A stretch of DNA of 64,000 nt, taken from Nitrosopumilus sp. (GTDB lineage Archaea; Thermoproteota; Nitrososphaeria; Nitrososphaerales; Nitrosopumilaceae). Shown here piece after piece: positions 9,221 to 58,759 of the stretch (position 1 is the stretch's first letter; each line of letters begins with the position of its first letter). Location of the stretch: assembly GCA_963662625.1 (NCBI GenBank), contig OY759726.1:448001-512000 (forward strand). Reading direction: 5' to 3'. Both the position numbers and the translations under genes were made by a program. The notes under the pieces are model-generated. The model did not search any database and had not been told where the DNA came from. It saw only the letters and a list, made by a program, of their open reading frames with translations.

Positions 9221-10776
9221 GTATGAGGTCACGCGTGCTGACCCTTTAACCAGCAAGGCGCGATCACGCTGATCCTTACTGCAGGGGGTGCCAGTGCGTG
9301 CGTGGCAAGGCGCAGAACGACCAGGCAGCCGGGGGGCCTGCTGGCACTCGCGCCCGGCGATATCGACTCACTCAAGTCAAAATACGGGGAGGCGGTGGCA
9401 GAGAACAAGAGGCTCCAGGCCCGCCCCGCTTACTGCGGGAACGCCCACTCCCCGCCGTCGGCCAAGTCGCCGGGACGGGAGGAAGCCAGGCGGGCGAGGA
9501 GGAAGGCCCGGAGGGCGGCGGCGGAGGGCGGCGGCGCCCCCGCGGGGAGGCCCGGCGGGCAGCCGGGGCACCGCGGGGCGTCCCGCAGGCACGCGCCTGG
9601 ACGCACGGTGCGCCACGGGTTCAAGGGGGGCGTCCCGCCAGAATGCGGCCGGTGCGGCCGCGGGACCGTGCCGGGCAGGCCCGTCACGCGGGACATCCCG
9701 GGCTTCGAGGTTACCGTGACGGAGACGCGCCGCGCCGCCCGGGCCGACATCGGCCTCGAATGATTTCGATTCGATGCTCGCGGTTACCGTGACGGAGACG
9801 CGCCGCGCCGCCCGGGCCGCCGCGTGCCCCAAGTGCGGCAGGGGGCACGTGGCGCCAAGCGGCCTCCCGGCGCGCGGGGGCCGCGGCAAGAACACGGCGG
9901 CCGCGGCGGCCGCGGCGGCCGCGCTGCGCCACGCGGCCGTCCCGTTCGGGAAGACAGCGGGTGCCGTGCGGGAGATCACCGGGGCGAGGATCGCGAAATC
10001 TGCGGCCATAAACGTGGCGGGGCGCGCCCGCGGCGCGATGCGCGGGCAGTTCCGGGACATCGCGGGCCGCGCCGGGAGGCCCGAGAGGGCCGGGGCCGAT
10101 GAGACGCGCGCCAGCCTGGCGGGAGAGGGCGGGCGGGCGCGGGTCACCCGGTCCGGCAGGAACGCCGTGACCGTGCACGGCCGGAACAGGGGGCCGCGGG
10201 TGCCAGGCAGGCACGTGGACTGGTACCGCGGGACCGCCGCGCCCGGCAGGCCCTCCGCGCACGGGAGGTCCGGTACGGGCGGGCGCCGCCGGCCGTGCCG
10301 GTCCCGCGGGCTGCGGTAGCTGCGGCACGCGGCGGAGAGGAAGGGGGCGGCGCCGCGCGCCGGGGTGCCGCGCCGGCGGGCGTCCGGCGCGTGCGCCGGG
10401 GCGCTGGCGGCCGCCGCCTCGGGCAGGCACTCGGCGCGCCTGCGCCGCGCCTCCGGGTCTGGGATGCGCAGGCTGCCGTTCGGGCACGGGGACGCCGGGG
10501 GCACCGCGCCTGCCCCCCTGGCGGGCAGGCTGCAGGCGCCGCCGCCCCGCCCGTCCGCGTTCCCGGGGCACGGGGGGGCGGGCCCACGGACAGCGCCCCC
10601 GGGCGCGGCCTGCGGCACATGGCGGTGTCCCGAAAGACAGGCGGCCAGACCAAGGGCGGGAAGCCCTGGAGGGACAGGCGGTCCCGCTCCATGGCGTGCA
10701 TGATCACGTGGGAGAGGCACGGGAAATCCCTGTCAGGCGGGGTACCCAAGACAGTGTAGGGGTGGTGACCTCGTAC
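9221..10776 (+). mobile_element. Degenerate IS66-family element (fragmented TnpC-like transposase)
   Basis: Fragments: coiled coil + NAHSPPS + PGGQPGH.G + DIP..VTE...CPKCG + C-terminal ..TW..HG; 12-bp terminal inverted repeats GTATGAGGTCAC (9221-9232) and GTGACCTCGTAC (10765-10776), 11/12 match. Confidence 0.7.
9709..9819. repeat. Perfect 38-bp direct repeat separated by a 35-bp unique insert
   Basis: ggttaccgtgacggagacgcgccgcgccgcccgggccg at 9709-9746 and 9782-9819. Confidence 0.95.
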
Positions 10777-10824
10777 CACCACCTGCGCTTAAAAGGTTAA
10801 ATAAAAAAGCCCGGTTGCTGTACC

Positions 10825-11049
10825 ATGGACGAGGTTCCAATCACCGGCAACCAGCAGTGCCTGGAGGACGCCATATTCCGGGAGGACAAAAAATACGTCG
10901 GGGAGTGGGTGCTGATTGTCGACGAGAGGGTGGCGTACCACGGGCCTGACGGGGACGAGCTGCTGGCCGAGGTGAGGAAGGCCCAGAAACGCGGCGTCTC
11001 CCCGCTGGTGCATTATGTCGGGGACGAGCACGACGCATTCCTGCTGTGA
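10825..11049 (+). CDS. DUF5678-like small protein
   Basis: KY.GEWV.IVD..V..HG.D..E pattern; A/T-rich TATA-like sequence upstream; precedes a retropepsin gene. Confidence 0.7.
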   Translation: MDEVPITGNQQCLEDAIFREDKKYVGEWVLIVDERVAYHGPDGDELLAEVRKAQKRGVSPLVHYVGDEHDAFLL

Positions 11050-11059
11050 GGCCCGCGCC

Positions 11060-11473
11060 ATGTCTGCCACATTCAGGTACATTCCTTTGACTTACGGCGA
11101 CCAACGTCTGAGGAGGCCTGCATTGGAGGTACGGCTTACCCACAAGTACAGCATCAACATTCACGCATACGTGGACAGCGGCGCATCGCACACATTTGTC
11201 CCACAAAGGTACGCAAAACTTGCCGGGCTTTTAGATGAAGGCAACGCAGTGAAGGTTCAACATATTGAGGGATCATACGAGGCCAGGATGGTAGCTGTCA
11301 GGTCAATGGAGATAATGCGGGGCCAGGAAGTGTTTGAGAACATGCGTGGCCAGACGGTGCTGGTTGGAGAGAGCGACATCCAATTCTGCATTCTTGGCCG
11401 GAATTCGGTCTTTAGGTATTTTGACATCACTTTCTCTGAAAAGCGCAGGAGGGTTACGCTGACCCGTGTTTAG
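11060..11473 (+). CDS. Clan AA (retropepsin-like) aspartic protease
   Basis: RP.LEV.L...AYVDSGASHTFVP catalytic motif and ILGRN C-terminal motif. Confidence 0.82.
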   Translation: MSATFRYIPLTYGDQRLRRPALEVRLTHKYSINIHAYVDSGASHTFVPQRYAKLAGLLDEGNAVKVQHIEGSYEARMVAVRSMEIMRGQEVFENMRGQTVLVGESDIQFCILGRNSVFRYFDITFSEKRRRVTLTRV

Positions 11474-11861
11474 TGGAGACGTCAGTATTTGGCGGAACGG
11501 GCTGGCCGCTGGCGGCGCAGGCATTCCGGGGCGCATGAAGGGTCCGGCCTGTCCTGGCAGGTCCGGCGGGGCGCCGCTTGGGGAGCCCCTGCTTCGGCTT
11601 GCGTGCGGGGGTTTTTTGCGGGCTTTGTGCTGCCGGGCCGCCCCCGCAGCCGTCTGCAAACTCTTCCTTGCTTATGTTGGCATACCGCAGTATGGAAAAC
11701 AGGGGTTTGATCCTCAGTTTTTTGTTCCCTGCGGGCACAACTGTGACTTCACTTCCCCTTCTTAGCGTTGCGTGGATTCCTTTCCTGCGGGTCACGGCAA
11801 ATCCCCTGCCTTGCAGGTATCTTGTCATTTGATTGCCGGATATTCTTGGGAACTTTGGCAT
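11454..11861 (-). CDS. hicA: HicA-family toxin (about 70-aa core with GC-rich read-through tail)
   Basis: MPKFPRISG..M..YL...GF...R.KGIH..LR.....VVP...L...LFSILR.A.IS.EEF. Confidence 0.8.
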   Translation of the reverse strand: MPKFPRISGNQMTRYLQGRGFAVTRRKGIHATLRRGSEVTVVPAGNKKLRIKPLFSILRYANISKEEFADGCGGGPAAQSPQKTPARKPKQGLPKRRPAGPARTGRTLHAPRNACAASGQPVPPNTDVSTKHGSA

Positions 11862-12073
11862 TATTGCTCTATTATAAGCATGTTAAAGTCTGTCGGGCTC
11901 CCACGTTCCTCGGCTGCCAGCCCCACCGCCTCTTTCATGCTTTCGGCCACAGCCCCAAACGTGCCTCCCTCCGAAACTGCGTGCAGCTCGTCGCATGTGC
12001 CGACGAACCCCCCGTCCTCGAGATCCTTGGTTATTACCACCGCATACGTTTTCTTTTGTATGGTTGTGGTCAT
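11861..12073 (-). CDS. hicB: HicB-family antitoxin (short form, no DNA-binding domain)
   Basis: YAVVITKDLEDGGFVGTCDELHAVSEG.TF.....MKEAV; stop overlaps the hicA start. Confidence 0.8.
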   Translation of the reverse strand: MTTTIQKKTYAVVITKDLEDGGFVGTCDELHAVSEGGTFGAVAESMKEAVGLAAEERGSPTDFNMLIIEQ

Positions 12074-12149
12074 GGCACTACCAGTCGTCAATTGTACGGA
12101 AAGTCGGTCCGCGCCGGATCAAGAGGACGGTAGCCGGCCATTCTAGGCC

Positions 12150-12897
12150 GTACCGATCACGGAAGGCCATGACAGGAAGACTTGCTGAGGGGTCCCGGAA
12201 GTGCCCGGTCAGGCAGCGAGAGAAGGGCGTGCCGTCATCCCGGGTGGCGGCCGACCTGGGAATCACCGCCAGGCACGTGCAGGGGCCGCGGGCGGGGTTC
12301 CCGGGGACCGGAACGGCGGCGGCGGGCCGACGCGGCAGGCGCGGTTGCGCGCGCAAGGAGGCGCAAGACGGTGACAGTGGTGCAGGACGGGCCCGTCTTC
12401 GTCAGGATGGGCACCAACGGCAGGAGGCTGTGGTCCCGCGTCGGGGAGGGGGTCGCCGTCAGCAGGTCCGGCAGGAGGGACAGGGTGGTAGTGTACGGCT
12501 CCCTCGCGGCCGACGGGACGAGGCCGGTGCGGCCGTGCGGCAGGTCCGGCGGGGATGCCTTCCTGGCGTACCTCAAGGAGATCCGGCGCGAGCGGGGGCG
12601 CGCGCCGGTGATAACGGGCAACGCGGGGCAGCACAGGACGGCGGGCGCGGGGGAATGCCTGCGGGACCACCGAGAGATCGGGGTGCCGTGCCTTCCCGCC
12701 GCCGCGCCGAAGCCCGGCGCGGCGGGGGCCGTGTGGAAGGAGGCAAAGCACGGGCTGGTCACGCCCGGGCACTACGAGACGCTGGATGGACTGAAGCGTG
12801 CGGTCTCGGAGTATTTCAGGACGTGCCCGATCAGGGCGGGCACCTGCAAGTTCCTGTACCGCTCCATCTGAGACGAAATTTTCAATGATCGTCACTA
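12150..12897 (+). mobile_element. Degenerate IS630-family element
   Basis: HTH fragment (VAADLGITARHV) plus eroded DDE_3 domain (VYGSL...FLAYLKEI..ITGNAGQH..VWKEAK); imperfect TIR 12150-12164 / 12881-12895 (11/15), the right one followed by TA. Confidence 0.72.
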
Positions 12898-12948
12898 AAG
12901 GCAGGCAATTTCACGGTTTTGGGGCGCGGCCGAAGGGCAGGAATGGGA

Positions 12949-13668
12949 TCAGTGCCCCTCCACGACCGATATCACGGCGTTTGCCATCCTGACCGCGTGC
13001 TCCTCGGTGAGGTGTCCCAGTATTGAGTAGTGGTTGGACTCTGTCAGGAACAGCATTTTCAACGGCGAGATTACTCCGAGCGTGCCGTCAGGGTACACCG
13101 TTTGCGCCATTTCCATCATCAAGGCCTTTCCCAGGGAGTCGCTGACGTCGGTCAGCCTGTACATCGGGTTCGTGTTGTTGTTGTAGAGGTTCAGCGGTTC
13201 GCCCTGTCGTGGGGCAAAGCTTACGGTTATGTAGTTCTGGGAGAAGAGCAGTTCCAGGTCGGTGTTGTCCTCCGTCAGGGGGACCTTTCCAAGCAGGAGC
13301 ACGGTATTGTCCGGGTGGCGGTACACCTGCAGGTGGGAGTACTCGCTGCCTGCCGCCTTCAGGAGCGGGACATACTGGGAATACTGCGGGTTCGGGATCC
13401 TGGGGCCGCCGGCACCCGTGGCGTTTATGAACGGCGTCACCTCGTCGTCGAAATAATGCCCCCTGGACAGCTTTGAGGCGGGGGGGATGCCGCCGCCCAT
13501 GACCCTGGGAAGATCCGCGGTCACGGGCACTGCCGGATCAGGCGATTCCGTGTGGACGCCGCCTTCCGGAGACTCGTCTGAAGCCCAATATGTACCGGCA
13601 AAGAGCACTACTATGGCCACAGCTATTCCGGCCCCGCCCACGGAGATCGCCGCCCTCCTGTCTAGCAT
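12949..13668 (-). CDS. Hypothetical protein with N-terminal membrane anchor
   Basis: Hydrophobic AISVGGAGIAVAIVVLFAGTYW, then a globular region; start overlaps the stop of the upstream pseudogene. Confidence 0.65.
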   Translation of the reverse strand: MLDRRAAISVGGAGIAVAIVVLFAGTYWASDESPEGGVHTESPDPAVPVTADLPRVMGGGIPPASKLSRGHYFDDEVTPFINATGAGGPRIPNPQYSQYVPLLKAAGSEYSHLQVYRHPDNTVLLLGKVPLTEDNTDLELLFSQNYITVSFAPRQGEPLNLYNNNTNPMYRLTDVSDSLGKALMMEMAQTVYPDGTLGVISPLKMLFLTESNHYSILGHLTEEHAVRMANAVISVVEGH

Positions 13669-15450
13669 GGGGGTGATGCCCCCTTGCCGGTTTTGGTGTG
13701 CCGGTACGGCTCGTCGCCGGTTCCGCACTCGTATACCTTGTAGTGGTCTCCCTCCTCCCGGATAATTGTGGTGCTGAAATCGGTCGAGACTACGTCCGTC
13801 GAATCCATCTCAAGGTCATTCCAGTCGTGCTGGTATAGCGGGTTGGTGGGCCTCGTGGCCTCGCTCCCGATGGTGAATTTGGTTATGGACACTGGCATTT
13901 CCGTTACATATTCGCACTACGCCTCCTTCCCGCCACTGTGCGTCGCGGTCACCGTCCATTTTTTTCCACTATCGTCTGATTTCTCCACCCTGATGCTGAA
14001 TACGTCGCCGTCGGAAACCGCGATGGGCGTTTTATTCTGTAACATGCCGTGGGCCCCGCACCCCGCGCTTTCTTCGGCGTGACTGTCAAGGAACCCGGCC
14101 TCGATAAATCGATCGTTGCTGAAATGTACCCACATGGGGTTTTGGATAAAGCCGGAGCCGTAAGGGACGCCTATGTCGCCCACGGTCAAGTCCACGTTGA
14201 CGCTTGATGGCGGTGTCTTGGGAACGTAGGTCTTGATCGCATAGCACCGCTTTTCATTGTTGATGCCCGACGCCGGGCACTCGGTAGCCGTGTCGTCCAG
14301 CCCGATGGTGATGGAATGCGTGCTGGCCGGAAGGGGGTCATCAAACACCTTGGCCCCAAGAACCTTCACTCCGTTGGGGTAGGTGATGACAGGCGTGGTT
14401 GCCTCAAACCCTGCCGACGGCGCCGCCTGGGCAAGAAAGTCGGCAGGCATGAGGTCCGTCTTGGACGCCTTGCCGTCCGCCCCGGTGGTTGCAGCCTCCA
14501 GCTCGTTTGTGGTGTACGTGTGGACATGCACGTTTTCCCCGTATATTGGCGGTTCCCCGGCGTCCTTCACGCCGTCCCCGTCCACGTCATGAAACACGTC
14601 GATGTCCAGCGTCACCTGCTTCTCGGGTGGCACCGGGTAAAACCCAACCTTAAACTCATTTCTGGAACCGGTGTTTGGCCTCACCACGTATTCGTAGAAC
14701 TCGCCTGACGTGATGGTGTGATCAAACGGAAAATAACCGGTCTGGACCAGCGTGCTGCCCGGGGTGGGGGCGACCAGGCCGAATTCGTAGCTGCCGTCGC
14801 TGCCGGTGGTTCTGCTCCTTTGTTCTGACGTCAGCAGGTCTATGACGTACATGGCGTACCCCTGGATTCCTGGCTCCCCGGCGTCCTTCTTGCCGTCGCC
14901 GTCGGTGTCTGAGAACACGGTTCCGTGGATCGTGGCGTCGTTGTCCTCGGTCACGTTTCGCAGGGCAAATTCGTCTGGGTGTGGCGGCCCTGTGGATATC
15001 CTCACGTCGTGGAAGTAATGGCTGTGGGTTGACGGCACCATCCCGGTCGGGACGTCTACATGGATCCTATACGTCCCGGGCTCTAGACTTAGGGCGTACG
15101 CGCCGTCATTATCCGTTTCAGAGCTGAATTTCGCAGAGTCGGCGGTCCTGGTTGCGTGCACCCCTGTCTTTATGCCTCGCTCCGTATCCTCCTTGCTGCT
15201 GTTGTCGTTTTCATCCAGAAACACCACCCTTTGCTTCCACCGTGAATGTGGAGCCCCCGGTCTGGCTGCTTGTAACGACGCGGTGTCCCTCCCCAAACCC
15301 CATGACACCGCTGTCTGCAAACGCGCCGTGCCCGCCTCCGGCCTGCGGGGATGCGTCCCTTGCCGCGGAATGGTCGGTGGCCGACAGCGCGGCCAGCGCG
15401 ACGAGTGTCCCCGCGGCGGCCAGCAGTGTGGCGGCTCTTCTGTTTTTCAA
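13662..15450 (-). pseudogene. Secreted SdrD-B-repeat surface protein, disrupted by a frameshift near 15228 and an in-frame TAG at 13917
   Basis: Signal-peptide ORF 15450-15211 shifts frame at AAGGGTGGTGTTT into VVFLDENDN; SdrD-B motifs GTVFSDTDGDGKKDAGEPGI and DVDGDGVKDAGEP; ORF 13662-13898 continues in the same frame after the stop. Confidence 0.75.
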
Positions 15451-15590
15451 TGGTGCTTTTTTTGACTCCCGGCCTCCATTTAAGCATGCGTGGCACAGTG
15501 CTCCAAGACTGTGACATGGTCACGCCTTCCTTGAAGGTGGGGCCCCCGCCCAAAAAACCGCGATTGCCGGCTTCTGGAGTGGTGCAAGCC

Positions 15591-15770
15591 CCCCGTGAAG
15601 ATGGTGCCGGAAAGATCGCTTTTGAATTGAGGTCGCGTCCCCTGTTGTGGTGCAGCCCCACTCCCCGTGAAGATGGGGCCGGAAAGATCGCTTTCGAACC
15701 CGATAGGCGCAAGTGGGTCAGCAGGTGTTTTTTGCCCGTGAAGATGGGGCCGGAAAGATCGCTTTTGAAC
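15591..15770 (+). CRISPR. Orphan CRISPR-like mini-array (3 repeats of 35-36 bp, 2 spacers of about 36 bp), no cas genes
   Basis: Repeat cccgtgaagatgg(t/g)gccggaaagatcgcttt(t/c)gaa at 15592-15626, 15664-15698 and 15735-15769; periods 72 and 71; internal hairpin gaaag-atcg-cttt(t/c). Confidence 0.5.
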
Positions 15771-15936
15771 AGTGGTGCACCCGCCCAGCTCGTCATTGAA
15801 CGGGGGCGGCCGCCCCTCCCTGGGCGGCCAGGACAGGAGATGATCCACAAGGCACGCTTTGGAACGGCAGGGAGGCCACATCACCCTGATTGAACAGGGC
15901 CTCAGGGGCAGAACAGTAAAAAAGAAAGCGGTGCGC

Positions 15937-16737: not shown

Positions 16738-16820
16738 CGCCGGCTCTGGGGGCCGCGCCTGCCGCCCCGGCGTGGCGCGGGGGCCCGTGTTTTAAATAGA
16801 AGTCCCTTCAGGTCTCAGTT

Positions 16821-17369: not shown

Positions 17370-17371
17370 TA

Positions 17372-30153: not shown

Positions 30154-32823
30154 CTACCTCCCAAGGTAGAGCAGCCATTCCACGGGGGCCAGGCCGACCC
30201 TGACGTAGTGGACGGAGCCCGGCTCCGGGTCCACTATGGCCGGCAGCCACGGCACCTCGACGCCGCCGGGGCCGGCGTACGCGTATTCCGTGGGGGCGTA
30301 CCCGCGGAGATCCGGCAGCACCGCAAAGTCTGACGGGACGATGTCCCGCATCTCGAGGGCGCCGCCGGGGCCCGTCTCCGCCACCGCGTCCCCGGAGGCG
30401 TACGTGTGGACCGCGACCCGCAGGCCCCCGGCGCCCGCCTCCCCGGCGTCGCGGGCGCCGTCCAGGTCGGCGTCCAGGTACGCCTCGAGGCGCAGGGTGA
30501 CCATCCCGTCCGGCGGGACTGGGTAGAGCCCCAGGTCAAACGTGGCGCCGGACCCCCCGGGGGGGCTCGCCAGGACGGACCACCCGGGGGGGTCCGCCGC
30601 CACGTGGCCCGGCGGGAGCGGCCCGGTCTGCACCAGCGTGGAGGCCGGGCCCGGGTCGAGCCCCGCGAACCTGTACTGCCCGCCGGCGTCCGTGACGGCG
30701 GCCATCGCCGGGGCGCCGGGCCGGAGGGCGAGCATCACGTGCCCGGCGACGCCCCCCTCGCCCGGATCCCGCACGCCGTCGCCGTCGGCGTCGCGGAACA
30801 CCGTCCCCGAGACCGCGGCCGCGGCTCCCGCCGCGCCGCCCGCCACCCTGACGGCCACCGCCCCCTCGTTGCCCTCCCCGACGCCGAACCCGTCCGCCCT
30901 GACGGTGACCTCGTAGGAGCCCTTCTCGTACGGGAGGGACTTTAGCTGGAGGATCCTGCCCCCGGGCCCGCCCATCTGGAACAGGTCCCCGTCGCCCCCG
31001 GGCACGACGGCGTATGACGCCTGGCGCCTGTCGAGGGCGGGGCTCTGCACCGTGATGGTGGTGACGTCGGCCCGGCCGGGGGCGGGGACGGCGTGGCCCG
31101 GCACGACCAGCCAGCTTCCGAGGTTCTGGCCGGAGTCGGCCCCCTCGAACATCCCCTCCATGTCCGTCACGCTTGACACGTCCCAGGGGCCCAGGGGCTG
31201 GTCGAAGGAGGCCGCTCCCGAGAACATCCAGCTCATGTCCGTCACGCTTGACACGTCCCAGGAGTCCAGGGGCTGGTCGAAGGAGTCCGCGTCCGAGAAC
31301 ATCGCCCTCATGTCCGTCACGCCAGACACGTCCCAGGAGTCCAGGGGCTGGTCGAAGGGGGTATGGCCGAACATGCCGGACATGTCGGTGACGCTCGAGA
31401 CGTCCCAGGAGTCCAGGGGCTGGTCGAAGGAGGCGTTATGAGCGAACATCCTCTCCATGTCCGTCACGTTTGACACGTCCCAGGATGAGAGGGGCTGGTT
31501 GAAGGGGGTATGGCCGAACATGCCGGACATGTCGGTGACGCTCGAGACGTCCCAGGAGTCCAAGGGCTGGTCGAAGGAGAAGCCGAACATGTAGGACATG
31601 TCGGTGACCGACGACACGTCCCAGTGGGCGAGGGGGTGGTTGAAGGGGGTTATTGAGAACATGAAGGACATGTCGGTGACCGACGACACGTCCCAGGAGC
31701 CGAGGGGCTGGTCGAAGGCACGGGCAAAATTGAACATGTCGGACATGTCCGTCACGCCGGAGACGTCCCAGGAGCCGAGGGGCTGGTTGAATTCCCATGC
31801 ATTTCTGAACATCCCGGACATGTCGGTGACGCTGGAGACGTCCCAGGAGCCGAGGGGCTGGTTGAATTCCCATGCTTCTCTGAACATCCCGGACATGTCG
31901 GTGACGCTTGAGACGTCCCAGGAGCCGAGGGGCTGGTTGAAGTGGAAGCCGGTGTCGGAGAACATCCCGGACATGTCGGTGACGCTTGAGACGTCCCAGG
32001 AGCCGAGGGGCTGGTTGAAGCCCGCGCCTGAGAACATCCCTGACATGTCGGTGACCGACGACACGTCCCAGGAGTCCAGGGGCTGGTTGAATGGCGTACC
32101 TCTGAACATGCCGGACATGTCGGTGACGCCGGAGACGTCCCAGCCGCCTATGGGGCCGCTGAAGGAGGAAGACGCGAACATGCCGCTCATGTCCGTCACG
32201 CCGGAGAGATCCGGCGCGTCGCTTGCGTTGTATGACAGGTTTAACGCGCCCTTGAATGCGGACTCCATGGACTCCCACTTGGTGCCGCCCCACTGCTCGA
32301 TGGAGGCCAGCTTGAGGGCGTTGGCCGTGGCTGGCGTGCCGTCGTCCCACACCAAGCCGCCCAACCTGGGATCGAACGCCGCGTTGCCGTCCAGGCGGAT
32401 CCTGGTAAAGTCGCCCGTTATCTGCACGGTGTAATGCCCGGGGGCGGCGTACGTGTGGGAGGCGTCGCCGGCATGCGCGGTCCGGCACCCGTCGCCCCAG
32501 TCCACCGAATAGGCGCCCGCGGCGCCCCCGACCGGGATGGTGATCGACTCGTGCGCGGAGGCGATCCTCCACTGGGTGACAAAGGCCCCGCCTTCGGCGG
32601 CCGGGGACTGCCAAAATGGCCCGTGTTGGGCGAGCCATAACATAAAAGTGGCAAAGGCCCCGCCTTCGGCGGCCGGGGACGGCTCCGCCGGCGCGCAGGC
32701 GGGCGGGATCTGCGCGCCCGCGCCCATGCCGGCCTCCTCTGCCGGGGGCATGCCGTAGGCGTGGGCTACGGGCACGGCCAGCGCGCATGCCAGCACCGCC
32801 AGGAATGCCGCGTATGATATCAT
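30154..32823 (-). CDS. BspA-like/DUF285 repeat surface protein with signal peptide, PKD-like domain and C-terminal SdrD-B pair
   Basis: Signal peptide; VDWGDG...HTYAAPG.YTV; about 15 repeats of FNQPL.SWDVSSVTDMSGMF; GTVFRDADGDGVRDPGE. Confidence 0.9.
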   Translation of the reverse strand: MISYAAFLAVLACALAVPVAHAYGMPPAEEAGMGAGAQIPPACAPAEPSPAAEGGAFATFMLWLAQHGPFWQSPAAEGGAFVTQWRIASAHESITIPVGGAAGAYSVDWGDGCRTAHAGDASHTYAAPGHYTVQITGDFTRIRLDGNAAFDPRLGGLVWDDGTPATANALKLASIEQWGGTKWESMESAFKGALNLSYNASDAPDLSGVTDMSGMFASSSFSGPIGGWDVSGVTDMSGMFRGTPFNQPLDSWDVSSVTDMSGMFSGAGFNQPLGSWDVSSVTDMSGMFSDTGFHFNQPLGSWDVSSVTDMSGMFREAWEFNQPLGSWDVSSVTDMSGMFRNAWEFNQPLGSWDVSGVTDMSDMFNFARAFDQPLGSWDVSSVTDMSFMFSITPFNHPLAHWDVSSVTDMSYMFGFSFDQPLDSWDVSSVTDMSGMFGHTPFNQPLSSWDVSNVTDMERMFAHNASFDQPLDSWDVSSVTDMSGMFGHTPFDQPLDSWDVSGVTDMRAMFSDADSFDQPLDSWDVSSVTDMSWMFSGAASFDQPLGPWDVSSVTDMEGMFEGADSGQNLGSWLVVPGHAVPAPGRADVTTITVQSPALDRRQASYAVVPGGDGDLFQMGGPGGRILQLKSLPYEKGSYEVTVRADGFGVGEGNEGAVAVRVAGGAAGAAAAVSGTVFRDADGDGVRDPGEGGVAGHVMLALRPGAPAMAAVTDAGGQYRFAGLDPGPASTLVQTGPLPPGHVAADPPGWSVLASPPGGSGATFDLGLYPVPPDGMVTLRLEAYLDADLDGARDAGEAGAGGLRVAVHTYASGDAVAETGPGGALEMRDIVPSDFAVLPDLRGYAPTEYAYAGPGGVEVPWLPAIVDPEPGSVHYVRVGLAPVEWLLYLGR
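31145..32210. repeat. Coding tandem repeats (about 69-78 bp units) of the DUF285 motif
   Basis: Recurrent acatgtcggtgac...gacacgtcccagga...ggggctgg units. Confidence 0.92.
32576..32682. repeat. 35-bp direct repeat (33/35) separated by a 37-bp unique insert, in frame within the DUF285 gene
   Basis: gtg(a/g)caaaggccccgccttcggcggccggggac(t/g)g at 32576-32610 and 32648-32682. Confidence 0.92.
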
Positions 32824-43891: not shown

Positions 43892-43893
43892 GC

Positions 43894-50826: not shown

Positions 50827-50869
50827 CAGTGCTAGGAGCCCCGCTCATTATTTTAACCTGCTGAGCGCG

Positions 50870-52056: not shown

Positions 52057-52483
52057 GGCTGATCCACTCCCCCCTCGGATATTAAGCCATGCGGCGCGCG
52101 CCTCCGGGCCCAGTAGATCGAAATGCGCCCCGGCGGGATGCCGGCCAGCGTGTCCTGGCCCGGTACGGGAACGTTTTGGACAGAAAAACCAACTGGTCAG
52201 GCGCCCCCGTAACCCGTCATGTACCCACGAAGTGCCCCCCGCCGCCCTTGCACCGGTTCCCCGCCCCGGAAGCCTTCACGCGGTTCCTTGCCGGAGCCGG
52301 CAGCCCGTTTGTTTGCTTCCTGGAGCGCTTATGGCAGGTACCGCCCGGAGCCGGCTTCTTGCGGGGCACGCATGGTTACCGGGGCCCGCGCCCGGGCGGC
52401 CGGACGCGGCTCGCGTGCCCGTGACGCCGGCGGGCCCTGCGGCATCGCTTTAGCTTAAATACGCGGGGGCCCAGCCCAACACT

Positions 52484-53497
52484 GTGGCGTCCACTGTGGT
52501 CGTCGGCGGGTTTTTCGGCGACGAGGGAAAGGGCAAGATCATCTCGTACCTGGCCGCGAGGGACGACCCCGCGATAGTGGTCCGCGGCGGCGCGGGCCCC
52601 AACGCCGGCCACACCATAAGCGACGGCGAGAGGGTCTACAAGGTGCGGATGCTGCCCAGCGGGTTCCTGAACAGGCGATCCAGGGTGATGATCGGCCCCG
52701 GCGTCGTGGTCAACCCCGGGGTCCTGCTGGGCGAGATCAGCGACTTTGGGGTGGCGGGCCGCGCGTTCGTTGACGGCAACTGCGGCATCATAGAGGAAGA
52801 CCACCTGGCCAGGGACTCCAGGGGGGACCTAAAGGAGAAGATAGGCAGCACCGGCTCGGGGACGGGCCCCGCCAACGCCGACAGGGCCATGAGGACCCTG
52901 AGGCTCGCGAGGGACGTGGACTCGCTCTCCTCCCTGGTGGCCGACGTGCCCGGGGAGGTGAACCGGGCGCTGGGCTCGGGCGAGCGCGTCCTCGTGGAGG
53001 GGACGCAGGGCACGTTCCTCTCCCTGTGGCACGGCACGTACCCGTTCGTGACGTCCAAGGACGTCACGGCGTCGGGCATCTGCGCCGACGTGGGCCTGGG
53101 CCCGAAGAGCGTCGGCGAGGTCATAGTGGTATTCAAGTCGTACGTGACGCGCGTGGGGACCGGGCCGCTGGAAAAGGAGCTCACGCCCGAGGAGGCCAGG
53201 GGCCGCGGCTGGTCCGAGTTCGGCACCGTCACCGGCAGGCAGAGGCGCGCGGCGGACTTTGACTTCGGCCTGGCCAGGCGCGCGGTCATGCTCAACGGCG
53301 CGACGCAGGTCGCGATCACGAAGCTGGACGTCCTTTTTCCCGCCTGCGCGGGCAGGACGTCCTACGACGGGCTCCAGCCCGAGGCGAGGGGCTTCATACG
53401 CGGCATAGAGGAGGGGCTTGGCGTGCCCGTCACGCTCATCGGCACCGGCCCCGGGGCGGCCGAGGTCGTAGACAGGAGGGGCGGGGTTCTTGGATAG
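52484..53497 (+). CDS. purA: Adenylosuccinate synthetase (short archaeal type)
   Basis: GDEGKGK, GPNAGHT, IGSTGSG.GPA, EGTQG, GTYPFVTS, GTVTGR.RR. Confidence 0.96.
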   Translation: MASTVVVGGFFGDEGKGKIISYLAARDDPAIVVRGGAGPNAGHTISDGERVYKVRMLPSGFLNRRSRVMIGPGVVVNPGVLLGEISDFGVAGRAFVDGNCGIIEEDHLARDSRGDLKEKIGSTGSGTGPANADRAMRTLRLARDVDSLSSLVADVPGEVNRALGSGERVLVEGTQGTFLSLWHGTYPFVTSKDVTASGICADVGLGPKSVGEVIVVFKSYVTRVGTGPLEKELTPEEARGRGWSEFGTVTGRQRRAADFDFGLARRAVMLNGATQVAITKLDVLFPACAGRTSYDGLQPEARGFIRGIEEGLGVPVTLIGTGPGAAEVVDRRGGVLG

Positions 53498-53527
53498 GTT
53501 TAATTTGTCAGCGCGCGCAAGGCTTCC

Positions 53528-54190
53528 GTGGACAGGTTACCCCGCTACATCCAAGTCCATTCGACGCTGGAATTTTCCAGGATGGTCTGCGCCCTAGAGC
53601 ACTCCCCGCGCGTGTCCTTCCTCCACGAGCACGACGGGAGGAAGGTCCTGTCGGTGCAGATGGACATACTCAAGGAAAAGCCCGTGGTGTACTTTACCCC
53701 GCTCGAGCACCGCGGGGACTACCTGTGCTACGGCATGAGGGGCGGGAAGGAGGAGTCCACGGTGGTCGACTCCACCTCGGACGCCAGCAAGATGTACTCC
53801 CCGATCGTCAGGATAAAGTCGCTCCCGTCCACGCTGAGGCCCGGCAACGGCACGCTTGACAGGTACCAGCCCATAGAGCTCGAGGACGTGTCCAGCCTCG
53901 CGAAGCTCACCTGGGGGCTCGAGGACGTCCCGTTCCCGCTGTTCCTGTTCCCCAGGAACGACAAGTGGCTCATGGGCGTCTTCATGACGTTCAACGACGA
54001 CGGGCCGTCCTACTTTTGCCACGTGGTCCTTGACAGCGAGCCCGAGAAGCCGTTCCTGAAGTTTTCGGCCAACGGCGGGACGGAGCCCACGTTCGTGGAC
54101 GGGCCGTCGGATCACGGCTACTCGTACACCAAGATCATAAAACTGAAGGACACCCACCCGCTAGTCGACTATGGACACCTTCAGAACTAG
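53528..54190 (+). CDS. Conserved hypothetical protein
   Basis: Host-like codon usage; located between purA and pyrF. Confidence 0.75.
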   Translation: MDRLPRYIQVHSTLEFSRMVCALEHSPRVSFLHEHDGRKVLSVQMDILKEKPVVYFTPLEHRGDYLCYGMRGGKEESTVVDSTSDASKMYSPIVRIKSLPSTLRPGNGTLDRYQPIELEDVSSLAKLTWGLEDVPFPLFLFPRNDKWLMGVFMTFNDDGPSYFCHVVLDSEPEKPFLKFSANGGTEPTFVDGPSDHGYSYTKIIKLKDTHPLVDYGHLQN

Positions 54191-54899
54191 GCTGTCCCGG
54201 ATCTCCGGGAAGAACGGCAGGGTGATCCTCGCGTGCGACCACGGGGGCGGCTCCGGGGACCTGGAGGCGCGGGCGATCCGGAGCATAGAGGAGCTGCACC
54301 CCTTCCTGTGCGGCGTGAAGCTGAACTTCCACCTGCTGCTGCCGCTGGGCGCCGGGGGGATCTCGAGGATCACCGGCGCGGCCCGCAGGCACGGCCTGCA
54401 GGCGATAGCCGACATCAAGCTGAACGACATAGGGAACACCAACGGGATCGCCGCCGGGCGCCTCTGGGACATGGGGTTTGACGCGGTGATCGCGAACCCC
54501 ATAATGGGGCTGGAAAGCATGAGGAGGCTGGCGGCGTCGGCCCACGGGGACGGCAGGGGCGTCATCAGCCTGTGCCACATGAGCGCCCCCGAGGCCAGGC
54601 TTGCCTACGAGATGGAGGTCGGGCCGCGGCGCCTCTACGAGGTCTTCCTGGACTGGGCGATCGAGAGCGGCGCGGACGGGATCATAGTCGGCGCGACCTT
54701 CCCGGAGGTGATCAGGCGCTGCTCGCGGGAGGCGCGCGGGACGCCGTGGGTGTTCTCCCCCGGGGTGGGGGCGCAGGGCGGCAGGCCGTCAGAGGCGCTG
54801 TCGGCGGGATCCGACTACCTCATCGCCGGGAGGGGCATCCTGGACGACCCGGACCCGGCGGCGGCGGCCAGGAGGATGCAGCTAGAGTGCTTCCCGTAG
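54171..54899 (+). CDS. pyrF: Orotidine 5'-phosphate decarboxylase
   Basis: ILACD, ADIKLNDIGNT, VGAT.P, SPGVGAQGG, I.GR.I. Confidence 0.93.
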   Translation: MDTFRTRLSRISGKNGRVILACDHGGGSGDLEARAIRSIEELHPFLCGVKLNFHLLLPLGAGGISRITGAARRHGLQAIADIKLNDIGNTNGIAAGRLWDMGFDAVIANPIMGLESMRRLAASAHGDGRGVISLCHMSAPEARLAYEMEVGPRRLYEVFLDWAIESGADGIIVGATFPEVIRRCSREARGTPWVFSPGVGAQGGRPSEALSAGSDYLIAGRGILDDPDPAAAARRMQLECFP

Positions 54900-55301
54900 C
54901 CGCGCCCGCGACTTTGAGAGGACGCCCCTCGCCTTCTCGAACGTCAGCCTCCCCATCGCGGCCCGGTAGTCCAGCCAGGCGTGGCCGACGTGCTCGTGGG
55001 AGAGCGCCACGTCCCCGGTGCCGGTCTCGCCCAGGAAGAACACGACCTTCTTGTTGATCACCCTGCCCTTGTGCTGGAATCTGTACCTGATCCGCTCCTC
55101 AAAGCCCTCGACGAACTCGATGTCGGTGATCCCGGTCTCCTCCTCGGCCTCCCTGAGCGCGGTCTGGTGCATGGACTCGCCCTCCTCCATCTTTCCCTTC
55201 ACAAAGTCCCAGTGGCCCGCAGGGTAGTGCAGCAGCAGGAACAGCACGCGCGAGCGCTCCCGCCTGAACACCACTATCCCCGCCGACGTCTTCCGTATCA
55301 C
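54882..55301 (-). CDS. NUDIX hydrolase (Ap4A hydrolase-like)
   Basis: HWDFVKG..E.GE....TALREAEEETG; LSHEH. Confidence 0.9.
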   Translation of the reverse strand: MIRKTSAGIVVFRRERSRVLFLLLHYPAGHWDFVKGKMEEGESMHQTALREAEEETGITDIEFVEGFEERIRYRFQHKGRVINKKVVFFLGETGTGDVALSHEHVGHAWLDYRAAMGRLTFEKARGVLSKSRARLREAL

Positions 55302-56089
55302 TTCCCCATCTTCCTCCTCCGCTTCTGGAACGTCCTGATGGCCCTCATCAGGTCGATCTTCCTAAAGTCCGGCCAGAAGATGTCTATGAACACCAGCTCG
55401 CTGTACGCGCTCTGCCACATCAGGAACCCGCTCAGCCTCTTCTCCCCCGACGTCCTCAGTATCATGTCCGGCGACGGCTGGGGCAGGTGCGAGGTGTACA
55501 GGTTCGACTCGATCTCCTTCTTGTCGATGTCGTCTACGTCGAGCGAGCCGTCCTTTATCTTGCCCCCGATCTTCTTCACGGCGTCGACCATCTCGTTCTG
55601 CCCGCCGTACGCCAGCGCGATGTTCAGGAAGTGGTCGTCGTAGCCCCTGGTGGCCTCGTCCAGCCTCCCCAGGACCCCCCTTATCGAGTCGGGCAGCAGC
55701 TCGATCCTGCCTATCCCCTTGACCCTCATCCTGTTCCTGTGGATCCTCGGGTCGGCGCAAAGCTTCTCCAGCCTGGCCAGTATCAGATCGTAGAGGAGGG
55801 CCAGCTCGCGGTCGTCCCTGGACAGGTTCTCGGCCGACAGCGCGTACAGCGTGATGGTCTTTATGTCGAACTCCTCGCACCAGTCCAGGAGGTCCTCCAC
55901 CGCGTTGGCGCCGTTCCAGTGGCCCGTCCTGGACATGCTGAGGTGCTTCCTGGCCCACCGCCTGTTCCCGTCCAGGATCAGCGCGACGTGGTTCGGGATG
56001 TCGCCGTGGCGGATCTCGTCTTCGAGCCTCCGCGAGTAGATCCTATACAGGCCGGACGCCTGCAGCAGGGCCTCCTTTATGTTACTCAA
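55298..56089 (-). CDS. uppS: cis-Prenyltransferase (undecaprenyl diphosphate synthase family)
   Basis: PNHVALILDGNRRWA, YALSAEN, YGG..E, RTSGEKRLSGF. Confidence 0.94.
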   Translation of the reverse strand: MSNIKEALLQASGLYRIYSRRLEDEIRHGDIPNHVALILDGNRRWARKHLSMSRTGHWNGANAVEDLLDWCEEFDIKTITLYALSAENLSRDDRELALLYDLILARLEKLCADPRIHRNRMRVKGIGRIELLPDSIRGVLGRLDEATRGYDDHFLNIALAYGGQNEMVDAVKKIGGKIKDGSLDVDDIDKKEIESNLYTSHLPQPSPDMILRTSGEKRLSGFLMWQSAYSELVFIDIFWPDFRKIDLMRAIRTFQKRRRKMGK

Positions 56090-56161
56090 GTGCTGTCACT
56101 CGGTTCTTGCTACGGTTCCCATGAGATATCAGTGTTTTTTCAGAACTCTTAAATCATAGTG

Positions 56162-57307
56162 TCAGCCGGGCTCCATCTCCTGGCTCCTGTTCTTCCTGTA
56201 CTTCCTGTACAGGATCGTGACCGAGATCAGCATCGCCGCGAGCCCCGCCAGCAGGGGCGGGACCAGCGTGAACGAGTTCACGTCGTGTATCAGGATGTTC
56301 GTGAACTGCGCGATCGTGGGGTACAACGCGGCCAGCACTACCAGCCGCAGGATGTCGCTGATCTGCCTGGGCACGCCCCCGATCCAGTTGCTGAGCAGGA
56401 TGCCCGCGAAGATGGCGCCGGCGCCTATCCACAGCATGGGTAGCGCCCCCGCGACGAACTGGCCGATGATCACCTTGTCCGTGATCTGCTCGATCAGCTC
56501 CGCGTTTCCCTCGAGCAGCCGCGCGTCGACCGACTCGATCCCCGCCGGCACCGACGAGAGCATCAGCAGGATCCCCGCGACCATCGTGAAGATCCTGATG
56601 AACCCCATCGGCGTGGGCCTGGACCAGTTGGACAGGGCCCGGTCTATGTCGAACGCCCTGACGATGAACGCGCCGCCCAGGATGCTCAGGAGCACCGCGA
56701 AGATCTCGGTGGTGAGCCCGAGGACCACCCCTATGCCGCCGATCAGCAGGAGTATCCCCGGCACGCCCAGGAAGAACTTGGAGTACTTCGAGTCGTACGC
56801 GATCATCTTCAGGTACTTGCCGAATACCGCGTAAGAGTACTCCACGCTCCTGCTGACCTTCATCACCACCCGCTGGACCGAGATCACCGGCAGGACGTTC
56901 TGGACCACCGGGATGACGCTCTCGTCGTCCTCGCCGTCGGACACTATGACTGCGCCGTTGGCCGAGAAGGCCTGCAGGGCGGCCTTCGTCTCCCTGAGTA
57001 TCTTCTCGTCTGCCTGGACCCCCCTGTCCTTGACGCCCGCGATGGTCACGACCTCGACCTCGTACCCCTTGCTGATCAGGTCCTCGTACGTCTTGATCGC
57101 CGAGAATATCGAGTTGGAGTCGGCGTCCTCCGGATCCTCCAGGGCCAGCCTCTGCGCCGCCTCTATGCACGCGTCCCTGCCGATGACCGGGGTGGCTATC
57201 CCCGCCTTCTCGCCCACGTCGTTGTCCCTGTCTATGCAGATTACCAGCAGCTTGTTTGCGGCGGACGCGTTCACGTCCTTTTCGACCTTGTCGGACCTCT
57301 GGGACAT
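56162..57307 (-). CDS. DUF373 family membrane protein
   Basis: LVICIDRDNDVG.K.GI.TPVIGR, DPEDADSN, VSDG.DDE.V.P. Confidence 0.88.
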   Translation of the reverse strand: MSQRSDKVEKDVNASAANKLLVICIDRDNDVGEKAGIATPVIGRDACIEAAQRLALEDPEDADSNSIFSAIKTYEDLISKGYEVEVVTIAGVKDRGVQADEKILRETKAALQAFSANGAVIVSDGEDDESVIPVVQNVLPVISVQRVVMKVSRSVEYSYAVFGKYLKMIAYDSKYSKFFLGVPGILLLIGGIGVVLGLTTEIFAVLLSILGGAFIVRAFDIDRALSNWSRPTPMGFIRIFTMVAGILLMLSSVPAGIESVDARLLEGNAELIEQITDKVIIGQFVAGALPMLWIGAGAIFAGILLSNWIGGVPRQISDILRLVVLAALYPTIAQFTNILIHDVNSFTLVPPLLAGLAAMLISVTILYRKYRKNRSQEMEPG

Positions 57308-57471
57308 TCCTTAGCTTTGCGCGGGATGACCTTTTAACGATTTCCAACTTTTAAAAATATTATAGTTAGGTTTTGGCGCCCCTCCCGTCCCGGCCGTGGC
57401 CGGGGCGGGGCCCGCTGCCATGCGCGGGCGGGGGCCCGTTCCGGCCGGGGCGCCCGGGGCCCGCCCCGCGG

Positions 57472-57960
57472 TCACGGCCTGGCCCGGTCGGACAGATCCA
57501 CCAGTTCCCGGTATTCCTTCTTGAGCGCGGCGATCTTCTCCAGGTTCTCCGCCGGCCCGCCGCCCCCCTTCATCAGCTCGGCGGCCACCCTGGTCTCGAC
57601 GACGTAGGAGTTGAACTTCCTCAGGGCGTCCATGTAGTTGATGTAGCTCTCCTCCCACTCCCCGGGGGGGTTGGACTTTACGAACTCCGTGATCTGCGCG
57701 GTGACCTGGGACGACGTGGCCTCCGTCGTCTCGACGTACGCGTCTGGCAACACCTTGCCGTCCATCATGCTCTGGAACTCCATGTCGACTGACTCCTCTA
57801 GCACCTCGTGGATTTTTTTTACGCCGTCCAGGTAGTTTTCGTAGTCGCTCACCACGAAGGTGGACGGGTTGTCCTGCGGCACCATCCAAAATACAAAGCT
57901 CGCGCCGGTTATCGCAGCAAGTATGAGTACGGTGATTGCTATGCCCCGCTTGGATGCCAA
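57472..57960 (-). CDS. Hypothetical membrane-anchored protein
   Basis: N-terminal TM GIAITVLILAAITGASFVFW; TTG start inferred. Confidence 0.72.
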   Translation of the reverse strand: MASKRGIAITVLILAAITGASFVFWMVPQDNPSTFVVSDYENYLDGVKKIHEVLEESVDMEFQSMMDGKVLPDAYVETTEATSSQVTAQITEFVKSNPPGEWEESYINYMDALRKFNSYVVETRVAAELMKGGGGPAENLEKIAALKKEYRELVDLSDRARP

Positions 57961-58201
57961 TTTGCAGTGCTTACGGACAGGGTGGTTATAACTTGTGGGC
58001 ATCTCCAGATCGCATCATTGCTGCGGAAAACCGCAAAAAATTAGCACAATCGGCGCATAACTTACAATTATTGAACGAGTGCGCCGGACGCGGGGGATTC
58101 GGCGTCGCGGGCCGCCCGCGGCAACTTACGCGCGTCTATCGTGTGGTGAAATTATTTTTACAGACTCTTCCTAAATACCACTGCGTATGACAACTTTTAG
58201 G

Positions 58202-58348
58202 ATGGCAGAAGCATATTGCGTAAAATGCAGAGCTAAAAGGGAGATAAAGAACCCGAAGAAAACCACGCTAAAGAACGGACGGCCGGCATTGAAGGGAACA
58301 TGTCCCGAATGCAGCACGAACGTCTTTCGAATTGGAAAGGTAGACTAG
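58202..58348 (+). CDS. DUF5679 / Cren7-like 48-aa zinc-ribbon protein (not in the ORF track)
   Basis: MAEAYCVKCRAKREIKNPKKTTLKNGRPALKGTCPECSTNVFRIGKVD. Confidence 0.85.
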   Translation: MAEAYCVKCRAKREIKNPKKTTLKNGRPALKGTCPECSTNVFRIGKVD

Positions 58349-58390
58349 CCTACAAGCACTTCCACTCGATCCCTCTTTTTCAAAAACCGC

Positions 58391-58759
58391 GTGGCTGGGA
58401 CGGGCATGCCGGAAGCAACACGGGGCAGGCCGTCGCCAAAGGGAAGGCCGCGCGGAGGCTGCGCCGGCACGATGGCCTTGGCACGGTCCCCCGCGATGCG
58501 GGCGGTTTCCAAGGGGCAGGCCGCGCGGAGGCTGCGCCGGAGGAATCGCGCGGTGCCGGCGGCACCACTGCCAAAGCCCCCGCGCCAGACGCCATTGCCG
58601 GCCCCGAGAAGCGGGCCGCGCCGGGCCCCGGGGGCGGGCCGGCCGTCGGGAACGTCCCTGGCAGACGAGCTGGAAAAGATCTCCAAGTTGAAAGAAGACG
58701 GCGTGCTGACGGACGGGGAGTTCCCCAGGATGAAAAGCAGGCTGATCGACAAGTCCTGA
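58391..58759 (+). pseudogene. Decayed gene retaining a C-terminal SHOCT domain
   Basis: SLADELEKISKLKEDGVLTDGEF..MK.RLI; upstream part is low-complexity and GC-rich. Confidence 0.6.
58436..58540. repeat. 32-bp direct repeat (30/32), period 73 bp
   Basis: ccaaagggaaggccgcgcggaggctgcgccgg (58436-58467) and ccaaggggcaggccgcgcggaggctgcgccgg (58509-58540). Confidence 0.88.

Follow-up and report, generated by a model that had tools for sequence, protein, structure and literature searches.

How do four loci of a Nitrosopumilus chromosome come to share one architecture, in which a short stretch of DNA stands between two direct repeats with a period close to 72 bp? All of them lie in the 64,000-nucleotide stretch analyzed here (the window), and the original prediction was that they arose through off-target integration by a Cas1-Cas2 integrase. 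Inspection of the sequence and a repeat search both recover the loci as described, with periods of 73; 72 and 71; 72; and 73 bp in order of position. They make up four of the eight families of short-range direct repeats that the search found in the window; two of the other families are DUF285 coding repeats, and the last two are spaced 171 and 37.

Geometry of the four loci

Locus 1 consists of a perfect 38-nt repeat (9709-9746 and 9782-9819; 36 nt if the insert is taken to include two ambiguous bases) around a 35-nt insert (9747-9781), with a period of 73, and comparison with its paralogues places it in a multi-copy element. Alignment to four of these paralogues, each of which has the segment once, leaves exactly 73 extra columns in the window copy. 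Locus 2 is a mini-array of three 36-nt copies (15592-15627, 15664-15699, and 15735-15770) with one or two mismatches between them, two in the case of the first and third, and spacer-like inserts of 36 nt (15628-15663) and 35 nt (15700-15734). Locus 3 lies within a DUF285 gene (30154-32823, minus strand). Its 36-nt copies (32576-32611 and 32648-32683, period 72) differ by two mismatches, have a 29-nt perfect core, and flank a 36-nt insert (32612-32647) that, read in frame, is part of a 24-residue addition to the surface protein, in which the sequence SPAAEGGAF occurs twice. Locus 4 is an old event, with copies at 58425-58467 and 58498-58540 that are 86% alike over 43 nt and have two mismatches in a 32-nt core (58436-58467 in the first copy).

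Some of the attributes first given to these loci hold only in part. The description of the surroundings of loci 1 and 4 as IS66 and SHOCT relics finds no support in Pfam, with no families returned for the open reading frames tested. The dyads noted in the repeats are present, but once GC content is corrected for the targets show no enrichment in folding energy (p = 0.14), and a role for dyads as a shared target feature is not supported. Likewise, the AT-richness of the inserts is real at loci 1 and 3, where a GC content of 0.51 compares with 0.82 and 0.79 for the respective repeats, but it is not a general property: the full set of 31 inserts, introduced below, averages 0.66, and the genome 0.634.

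The genome-wide period and the resident type I-G system

The 1.86-Mb genome contains 31 isolated repeat-insert-repeat pairs with periods of 70-74 bp, and all other periods are nearly empty, a sharp peak of the kind that the original prediction called for. An exact-seeded scan of periods up to 1000 places 24 of 53 isolated pairs at 70-74, with at most two at any other period, and within the range 60-90 the peak accounts for 33 of 40 pairs. When mismatches are tolerated (periods 40-130), the range 69-75 holds 33 of the 43 isolated pairs; two of these 33, both of period 75, are DUF285 coding repeats. Clustering of this kind is far beyond chance. A true 73-bp tandem duplication at genome position 1,083,394 has a different appearance and was set aside from the footprint set.

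The search for an integrase yielded a single Cas1, fused to Cas4 and with Cas2 beside it, in a complete type I-G system made up of the Cas4/Cas1 fusion, Cas2, Csb1/Cas7g, Csb2, Cas3g, and Cas8g1/Csx17. NCBIfam bit scores (cut-offs in parentheses) are 727.6 (560) for Cas4g/Cas1g, 703.9 (400) for Cas3g, 462.8 (150) for Csx17, 149.9 (45) for Csb2, 98.6 (38) for Csb1, and 31.6 (24.5) for Cas2, and the closest solved structure to the fusion is Geobacter Cas4/Cas1 (7MI4; E = 6.5e-164). Located between two blocks of the type I-G cas genes is a CRISPR array of 135 repeats of 36 nt, all identical, a sign that the adaptation machinery may have been active recently. Its spacers, none of which matched when searched against phages and plasmids, are of 34 (1 spacer), 35 (22), 36 (41), 37 (44), 38 (17), 39 (8), and 40 nt (1), and 132 of the 134 units have periods of 71-75. 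The length of repeat plus spacer (36 + 34-40) equals the footprint period: the mean is 72.61 ± 1.15 in the array (n = 134) and 72.19 ± 1.20 among the footprints (n = 31; Mann-Whitney p = 0.18).

These observations, together with those on inserts and targets set out below, lend strong support to the idea of off-target Cas1-Cas2 integration, and the checks that could be run are favorable, although the PAM check is weak. We consider it highly probable that the four loci are products of ectopic full-site spacer integration by the organism's own type I-G Cas4/Cas1-Cas2, the resident complex being the likely catalyst. In such a reaction, Cas4/Cas1-Cas2 would load a prespacer of ~34-38 bp, and both of its 3' ends would be joined to opposite strands of ordinary DNA at points ~36 bp apart, a spacing that would be set by the same ruler that serves for the 36-nt repeats of the array. 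Subsequent gap repair would copy the 36-bp target to each side of the insert, for a net gain of 70-74 bp.

Inserts, targets, and competing explanations

Donors for 12 of the 31 inserts are found elsewhere in the same chromosome, with 89-100% identity over 31-38 nt, and some inserts are thus copies of distant DNA. The donor sites are tens to hundreds of kilobases away, in housekeeping genes such as those for FttA, CoaBC, and MscS. The insert of locus 3 has 89% identity to genome positions 839259-839294, and the window itself contains the donor, or protospacer (54673-54707, minus strand), of a 35-nt insert at genome position 1,479,054-88, with 28 nt identical and 33 of 35 matching. The remaining 19 inserts have no donor in the genome. 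The same is true of the inserts of locus 2, and that of locus 1 has no match in the genome, in IMG/VR or metagenome contigs (exact scans), or among phages (blastn). Of the 12 donors, 3 are clearly flanked by the motif TTN or its complement and one ambiguously so, with ~0.8 expected by an estimate from base composition; TTN is the published PAM for type I-G, which may not be the one used by this system. A shared mobile element (MITE, IS, or casposon) was considered as a source and rejected: no insert matches another footprint, and the only non-self matches at E ≤ 1e-4 are the donors.

Self DNA accounts for 39% of the footprint inserts compared with 1.5% of spacers in the true array. Self-derived inserts may persist at ectopic sites because, without canonical repeats, no crRNA would be made from them. 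If this reading is correct, the inserts escape interference and would therefore be an unselected record of the DNA captured by the enzyme.

If the loci had arisen by simple tandem duplication, by slippage during replication, or by template switching, the inserts would be diverged versions of their neighbors; template switching had been raised for locus 1, where the first 14 nt of the insert bear a loose likeness to sequence immediately upstream. By local alignment, all 31 inserts are similar to their own flanks only at the level of chance (lowest, 4.5%); the score of 8.5 at locus 1 is reached by 24.5% of random windows. In addition, the true tandem duplication looks unlike the footprints, and the 12 traceable inserts have donors at great distances. 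Explanations of this type are already largely refuted, and we regard them as very improbable.

The structure is instead one of insertion with target duplication, as is evident from paralogues that have remained empty. At nine loci, including locus 1, paralogous copies of mobile elements carry the target once, as revealed by overlapping HSPs. One such empty paralogue is in the window (12548-12584), where two HSPs overlap by 37 nt, corresponding to the 37-nt target duplicated at genome position 396,382. The expectation of single-copy alleles is thus borne out in paralogous elements but not in orthologues, none being found among the relatives examined because these are too diverged and because contigs of public runs break at repeats. 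The excess of footprints in mobile-element copies probably reflects a tolerance of insertions there. At genome positions 10,396-10,555, an older footprint in a paralogue has the same target but another insert; if this account of it is true, it would show seeded sites turning into preferred sites.

The breaking of short-read graph contigs at repeats also means that the filled forms of loci 1 and 2 are not bridged by contigs of public runs, which leaves some room for an assembly artefact. Against this, older events have mismatches between their copies, the reading frame at locus 3 is continuous through the insert, and both copies at locus 1 have derived bases that are absent in the paralogues. 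Two runs, X1 and X3, have contigs in which the unique flanks agree exactly, and the same footprint is present in a different assembly, G002. An artefact is the explanation to which we give least credence.

A greater challenge comes from the possibility of an undescribed, CRISPR-independent process that adds ~72 nt as a short genomic copy plus a compensating target duplication, the match to the CRISPR period being coincidental. The summed length of duplication and insert varies less (sd 1.2) than either does by itself (34-39 nt, by maximal identity, for the duplications and 31-38 nt for the inserts), and in 6 of the 11 donor-resolved events the end of the target has 2-4 bases in common with the flank of the donor. 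The targets are also unlike the canonical repeat, with a mean of 13.2 of 36 identities versus 13.6 for random sites and no excess of k-mers; locus 1 alone resembles it, with 19 of 36 identities (>99th percentile). However, when boundaries are defined by donors and ambiguous bases are given to the insert, we read 8 of the 11 events as compatible with a duplication of exactly 36 bp, so that most of the apparent compensation is boundary ambiguity. The inserts are, moreover, diverse in sequence and mostly not hairpins, and the footprint periods are indistinguishable from those of the organism's own array. The apparent duplication length does range from 33/34 to 38 nt or more, and 16 of the 23 clean events are longer than 36 nt, more often than chance extension would predict; the stagger or microhomology is therefore not fully accounted for. 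Counting in favor of the integrase, G stands at the first duplicated position of 30 of 46 half-sites (background 0.31).

The same scan applied to relatives bears on this question in both directions. A same-genus relative with Cas4g/Cas1g has two clean footprints in 215 kb, with duplications of 36-37 nt and inserts of 36-38 nt, and footprints are thus present in both sampled genomes of the genus, each with Cas4g/Cas1g. None were found in 400 kb of a relative without a Cas1-like match. The same result was obtained for 400 kb of relative G016, which does have the I-G system with Cas4g/Cas1g, so possession of the system is not sufficient. On balance, a CRISPR-independent origin seems unlikely.

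A candidate nascent array and known systems

Locus 2 is possibly a CRISPR array in the process of being born, in which case a second integration, at a site already seeded, would have given it three repeats. Its repeat forms a stem-loop and has a plus-strand end of TTGAAC, and the 9-mer ATGGGGCCG of repeat 3 also occurs in the canonical repeat, where 0.006 per site would be expected at random. Alternatively, the locus may be what is left, after decay, of a true array that was foreign or older, a reading to which we attach an appreciable but lesser probability: three regularly spaced copies are already one or two mismatches apart, the stem-loop and terminal motif are present, and the common 9-mer could mean common descent. 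Set against descent from an older array, the repeat is absent, at up to three mismatches, from all 150 other genomes of the order, its 31-nt core is absent from metagenome contigs (exact scan), the neighbors are an SdrD-like gene on one side and cofE on the other, with no cas genes nearby, and the periods of 72 and 71 match the resident integrase. By the criteria for a bona fide array, the spacing is regular, but neighboring cas genes and a repeat conserved in relatives are missing.

More broadly, and with a little less than even confidence, we suggest that the type I-G integrase of this archaeal genus may serve throughout the genome as a constant source of 72-bp insertions, editing proteins in frame, as in the adhesin-like DUF285 gene, knocking out copies of mobile elements, and founding new CRISPR arrays, as at locus 2, where a second spacer would already have been taken. 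The footprints touch on open questions, namely the origin of CRISPR arrays and their repeats and the cost of the adaptation machinery to its host. They provide about thirty fixed natural events with a candidate enzyme, for some of which the donors and pre-insertion sequences are known. What becomes measurable are the target rules of the Cas4/Cas1-Cas2 integrase outside the array, the proportion of captured prespacers that is self DNA before selection acts, the load of mutations from gene disruption and in-frame protein insertion, and the first steps in the birth of an array. The period-peak test can be used on any genome.

Casposons and IS elements also insert with direct duplication of the target, and the casposase is a homologue of Cas1. 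These elements insert a defined kilobase-size unit and make short target duplications, whereas the inserts here are fragments of ~35 nt, all of them different, and the duplicated target is ~36 bp long. Closer in protein family (Cas4g/Cas1g; PDB 7MI4) is the I-G (formerly I-U) Cas4/Cas1-Cas2 module of Geobacter sulfurreducens, which acquires spacers mainly of 36 bp with the PAM TTN at about 50% of unique naive spacers (Almendros et al. 2019; PMC6547450), a motif clear at just 3 of 12 donors in our case. The portions of that study drawn on here describe integration at the leader-repeat and make no mention of ectopic genome-wide integration. Another archaeal integrase, Cas1-Cas2 of Pyrococcus furiosus, is described as capable of full-site integration into non-CRISPR DNA in vitro, at sites with repeat-like features (PMC6698737); likeness to the repeat is seen here at locus 1 only and not across the set. 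The kind of event is, in the accounts consulted, already known from E. coli, where off-target integration by the type I-E Cas1-Cas2 gives rise to "neo-CRISPR" loci (Nivala, Shipman and Church 2018, Nat Microbiol 3:310; via 10.1101/148544, PMC7054753, and PMC6698737). There too, sites outside CRISPR loci have an insert the length of a spacer between copies of a repeat-length target, and arrays might be seeded in this way. Those events were seen with Cas1-Cas2 overproduced, and the natural evidence, from two other species only, was termed circumstantial (10.1101/148544). Set beside that account, the genome studied here is that of a wild archaeon and encodes a type I-G Cas4/Cas1 fusion; the ruler is 36 bp, the fixed events number 31, and both self donors and empty paralogues can be identified. 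What is new is the scale, the archaeal type I-G host, and donors that can be traced.

Repeat pairs with a common period

The four loci for which a shared geometry had been claimed are all present in the sequence, at window positions 9709-9819 (locus 1), 15592-15770 (locus 2, a mini-array of three repeats), 32576-32683 (locus 3, in a DUF285 gene) and 58425-58540 (locus 4), and their successive copies start 73; 72 and 71; 72; and 73 bp apart, respectively. A search of the whole window for direct repeats (≥24 nt, no more than 400 apart) gave eight repeat families, comprising these four loci, two sets of DUF285 coding repeats, and two families at spacings of 171 and 37.

The settings of the loci differ. 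Locus 1 sits within, and interrupts, a multi-copy element; neither its host element nor that of locus 4 has a family match in Pfam. Locus 2 has an SdrD-like gene on one side and cofE on the other. No copy of its 36-nt unit turned up in 150 further genomes from this order, its repeat core has no match in metagenome contigs, and one 9-mer is common to the unit and the canonical repeat, that is, the 36-nt repeat of the genome's own type I-G CRISPR array. Locus 3 is best fitted by a 36-nt insert flanked by a 36-nt duplication, with two mismatches between the copies. The addition is in frame and accounts for 24 of the 889 residues of a DUF285 protein; it follows the signal-peptide-like start and makes SPAAEGGAF occur twice. 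The copies at locus 4 share 86% identity across 43 nt, with a core of 32 nt, and this is an old event. The coding repeats of the DUF285 gene lie at window 31072-32235 and have periods of 75, 72, and 147; the period of 75 recurs in many DUF285 genes genome-wide and is to be excluded from any period histogram.

Three scans were made of the genome, a single contig of 1,858,698 bp with a GC content of 63.4%, in which the window occupies bases 448,001-512,000. An exact-seeded scan (repeats ≥24 nt, periods ≤1000) yielded 84 isolated single-pair loci; in 53 of them the period exceeds the repeat length, and 24 of these fall at periods of 70-74 (70:4, 71:3, 72:7, 73:8, 74:2), and any other period occurs at most twice. 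A looser scan (repeats ≥20 nt, periods of 60-90, no more than two neighbouring repeat matches, CRISPR array left out) placed 33 of 40 pairs at 70-74, and an independent mismatch-tolerant scan (at least 29/34 identities, periods 40-130) placed 33 of 43 isolated non-tandem pairs at 69-75 (69:2, 70:4, 71:4, 72:9, 73:10, 74:2, 75:2). The remaining 10 include four at period 120 that, judged from their sequences, apparently represent one coding repeat family. The genome-wide period histogram, which the original prediction had proposed as a check, thus has a sharp peak at 70-74.

For further analysis, 35 pairs with a period of 69-75 and a repeat of at least 24 nt were reduced by four, namely the DUF285 coding repeats of period 75 at genome 1,368,626 and 1,618,200 and the overlapping pairs at 1,083,394 and 1,083,429, which together make up one plain 73-bp tandem duplication. 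That duplication (genome 1,083,394-1,083,544) looks coding and has the period of the footprints in a different geometry. The resulting working set consists of 31 pairs at 30 loci (70:4, 71:4, 72:9, 73:10, 74:4). In 20 of these 31 pairs the maximal core shows no difference between the copies, and most of the events are therefore recent.

The resident type I-G system

The only Cas1 match in the genome is a 554-residue Cas4/Cas1 fusion (Pfam Cas4 and Cas1; NCBIfam Cas4g/Cas1g, 727.6 bits, cut-off 560), which adjoins Cas2 and has as its nearest solved structure the Geobacter Cas4/Cas1 fusion 7MI4 (E = 6.5e-164). Csb1/Cas7g, Csb2, Cas8g1/Csx17, and a Cas3g whose C terminus carries an HD domain lie on the other side of the array, and the genes make up a complete type I-G system. 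The array itself (genome 1,683,977-1,693,742) is built of 36-nt repeats, 135 in number and all identical, and of 134 spacers with lengths of 34-40 nt (35:22, 36:41, 37:44, 38:17, 39:8). A search for cas1, cas2, and cas4, together with the true repeat-plus-spacer length, had been suggested as a further check: the genes are present, and the mean period of the array, 72.61±1.15, matches that of the footprints, 72.19±1.20 (Mann-Whitney p = 0.18).

The cas2 side is the probable position of the array leader, because the opposite end has a degenerate terminal repeat and the minus-strand repeat ends ATTGAAGC, which we take to be a typical type I repeat end. That degenerate repeat, at the end distant from cas2, is partial and comes after the final complete one (L003:7925-7950, minus strand). 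Two of the 134 array spacers match the genome that carries them, both perfectly: spacer 113 (genome 1,692,138) matches chromosome 837,999-838,035, and spacer 132 (genome 1,693,522), third from the presumed leader end, matches 1,799,688-1,799,725. TTN, given as the I-G PAM in a published account (PMC6547450), is absent from both protospacers in either orientation. A comparison of 7.8 kb of the array with phages and plasmids, in which a PAM was sought, returned no match, and comparison of the array with 300 genomes of the order returned only related arrays and two weak matches of 39-41 nt.

Empty sites and the origin of the inserts

Many footprints lie in multi-copy elements, and in copies elsewhere in the genome the target, the segment that is duplicated in the footprint, is single. 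At nine loci (genome 348,484; 395,288; 396,382; 457,709, which is locus 1; 631,904; 1,020,047; 1,479,016; 1,578,421; and 1,647,257), a paralogue gives two BLAST HSPs that overlap by 31-42 nt. Alignment of locus 1 with four paralogues reveals exactly 73 extra columns, corresponding to one 38-nt copy and a 35-nt insert, and derived bases common to both window copies are missing from the paralogues. Such alignments show the footprint structures to be insertions with target duplication. Orthologous empty alleles were not found among the same-genus relatives, which are at ~66-76% DNA identity and in which intergenic targets are unconserved. Public reads, from four runs of one study, were kept as graph contigs terminating at repeats; a contig of depth 5 from one run (X4) links window 9708 directly to 9782, leaving out exactly 73 bp. 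At the 90% likeness threshold used, it could represent either an empty allele or a paralogous copy of the element, and it is therefore not counted as an empty allele.

Outside the window, genome 10,396-10,555, paralogous to the element at 66,289, holds an older, decayed repeat-insert-repeat with the same target as the 66,289 footprint and a different insert of ~34 nt, for which no donor was found. Either this site was struck twice independently or spacer turnover took place.

Of the 31 inserts, 12 have a distant counterpart in the same genome (89-100% identity across 31-38 nt). The insert of locus 3 matches genome 839,259-839,294, and window 54,673-54,707 is itself the donor of the insert at genome 1,479,016. 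Donor genes are ordinary, such as those for FttA/aCPSF1, CoaBC, and an MscS-like channel. Given how these families are known to be distributed, the KH domain of FttA and the presence of CofE point to an archaeal organism. No source of the locus 1 insert was found in IMG/VR (exact scan), phages (blastn), or metagenome contigs (exact scan). Six of the 12 donors, together with one self-matching array spacer, fall within a 110-kb stretch, 816-926 kb, which partly overlaps a section of reduced GC (0.55-0.61 at ~835 to 950 kb vs 0.634 for the genome). The genes struck there are housekeeping genes, so that this cluster is not an obvious provirus; GC skew gives no clear origin or terminus, and the cluster therefore could not be linked to a replication terminus.

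Template switching had been put forward as an alternative at locus 1, where the start of the insert had been said to resemble sequence just upstream. Similarity of the inserts to their own flanks is at chance throughout: 24.5% of random windows resemble the locus 1 insert equally well, and the lowest value among all 31 inserts is 4.5%. This chance-level similarity largely eliminates tandem duplication and template switching. Off-target spacer integration by the resident Cas4/Cas1-Cas2 is the reading that we prefer; a CRISPR-independent process is less likely in this genome, in view of the reaction details and the relatives described below and of the agreement between footprint and array periods. 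Under spacer integration, the self share of 39% among footprints vs 1.5% in the array would fit interference-driven selection acting on the array only.

Target choice, relatives, and precedents

By maximal identity, duplications measure 34-39 nt and inserts 31-38 nt. Donors define the insert ends in 11 events, and in eight of these the duplication is exactly 36 bp if ambiguous bases are assigned to the insert, as we read them; the other three depart from this, at about 34, 35, and 38 or more. On each strand the duplication tends to begin with G, which is its first base at 30 of 46 half-sites (23 cleanest events). Resemblance of the target to the canonical repeat is not general across footprints, the exception being locus 1, with 19/36 identities, mostly in the leader-proximal half. 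The dyads that the original prediction regarded as a target feature did not hold up, being neither enriched nor significant after GC correction. TTN is clearly present beside three of the 12 donors and ambiguous beside one. Footprints are over-represented in repeated DNA (14/31 vs 84/600 random windows; Fisher p = 5e-5), an excess that we read as tolerance of insertions there; targeting of repeated DNA might produce it as well.

Cas4g/Cas1g scores above the cut-off in six of 61 genomes of the family, including the present one. Relatives were compared by the mismatch-tolerant scan as single samples rather than group-wide. Bases 400,001-800,000 of the present genome contain 12 pairs at periods of 69-73, and the same interval contains none in either G016, a relative with type I-G and an array period of 71-76, or G003, a relative with no Cas1-like match. 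In 214,713 bp of G002, a member of the same genus in which I-G is present, two of six pairs are clean footprints (L129:319-428 and L132:1869-1979): one has a 36-nt insert between 37-nt copies, the other a 38-nt insert between 36-nt copies. G002 (L121:13,913) and G016 (G016:C1:528,176) resemble each other in a motif of ~30 nt (…CCCTTYATTTCCACTCCA…) that recurs at a 60-61-bp period and is unrelated to the 72-bp footprints.

A limited literature search found no description of a natural genome rich in such events. In E. coli that overproduces Cas1-Cas2, off-target integration and the formation of 'neo-CRISPR' loci have been shown, and evidence from nature, for two other species, has been called circumstantial (Nivala et al. 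2018, via 10.1101/148544, PMC7054753, PMC6698737). With its four loci confirmed, the original prediction of off-target Cas1-Cas2 integration is supported, and the genome is an unusually rich natural case of this known off-target integration.
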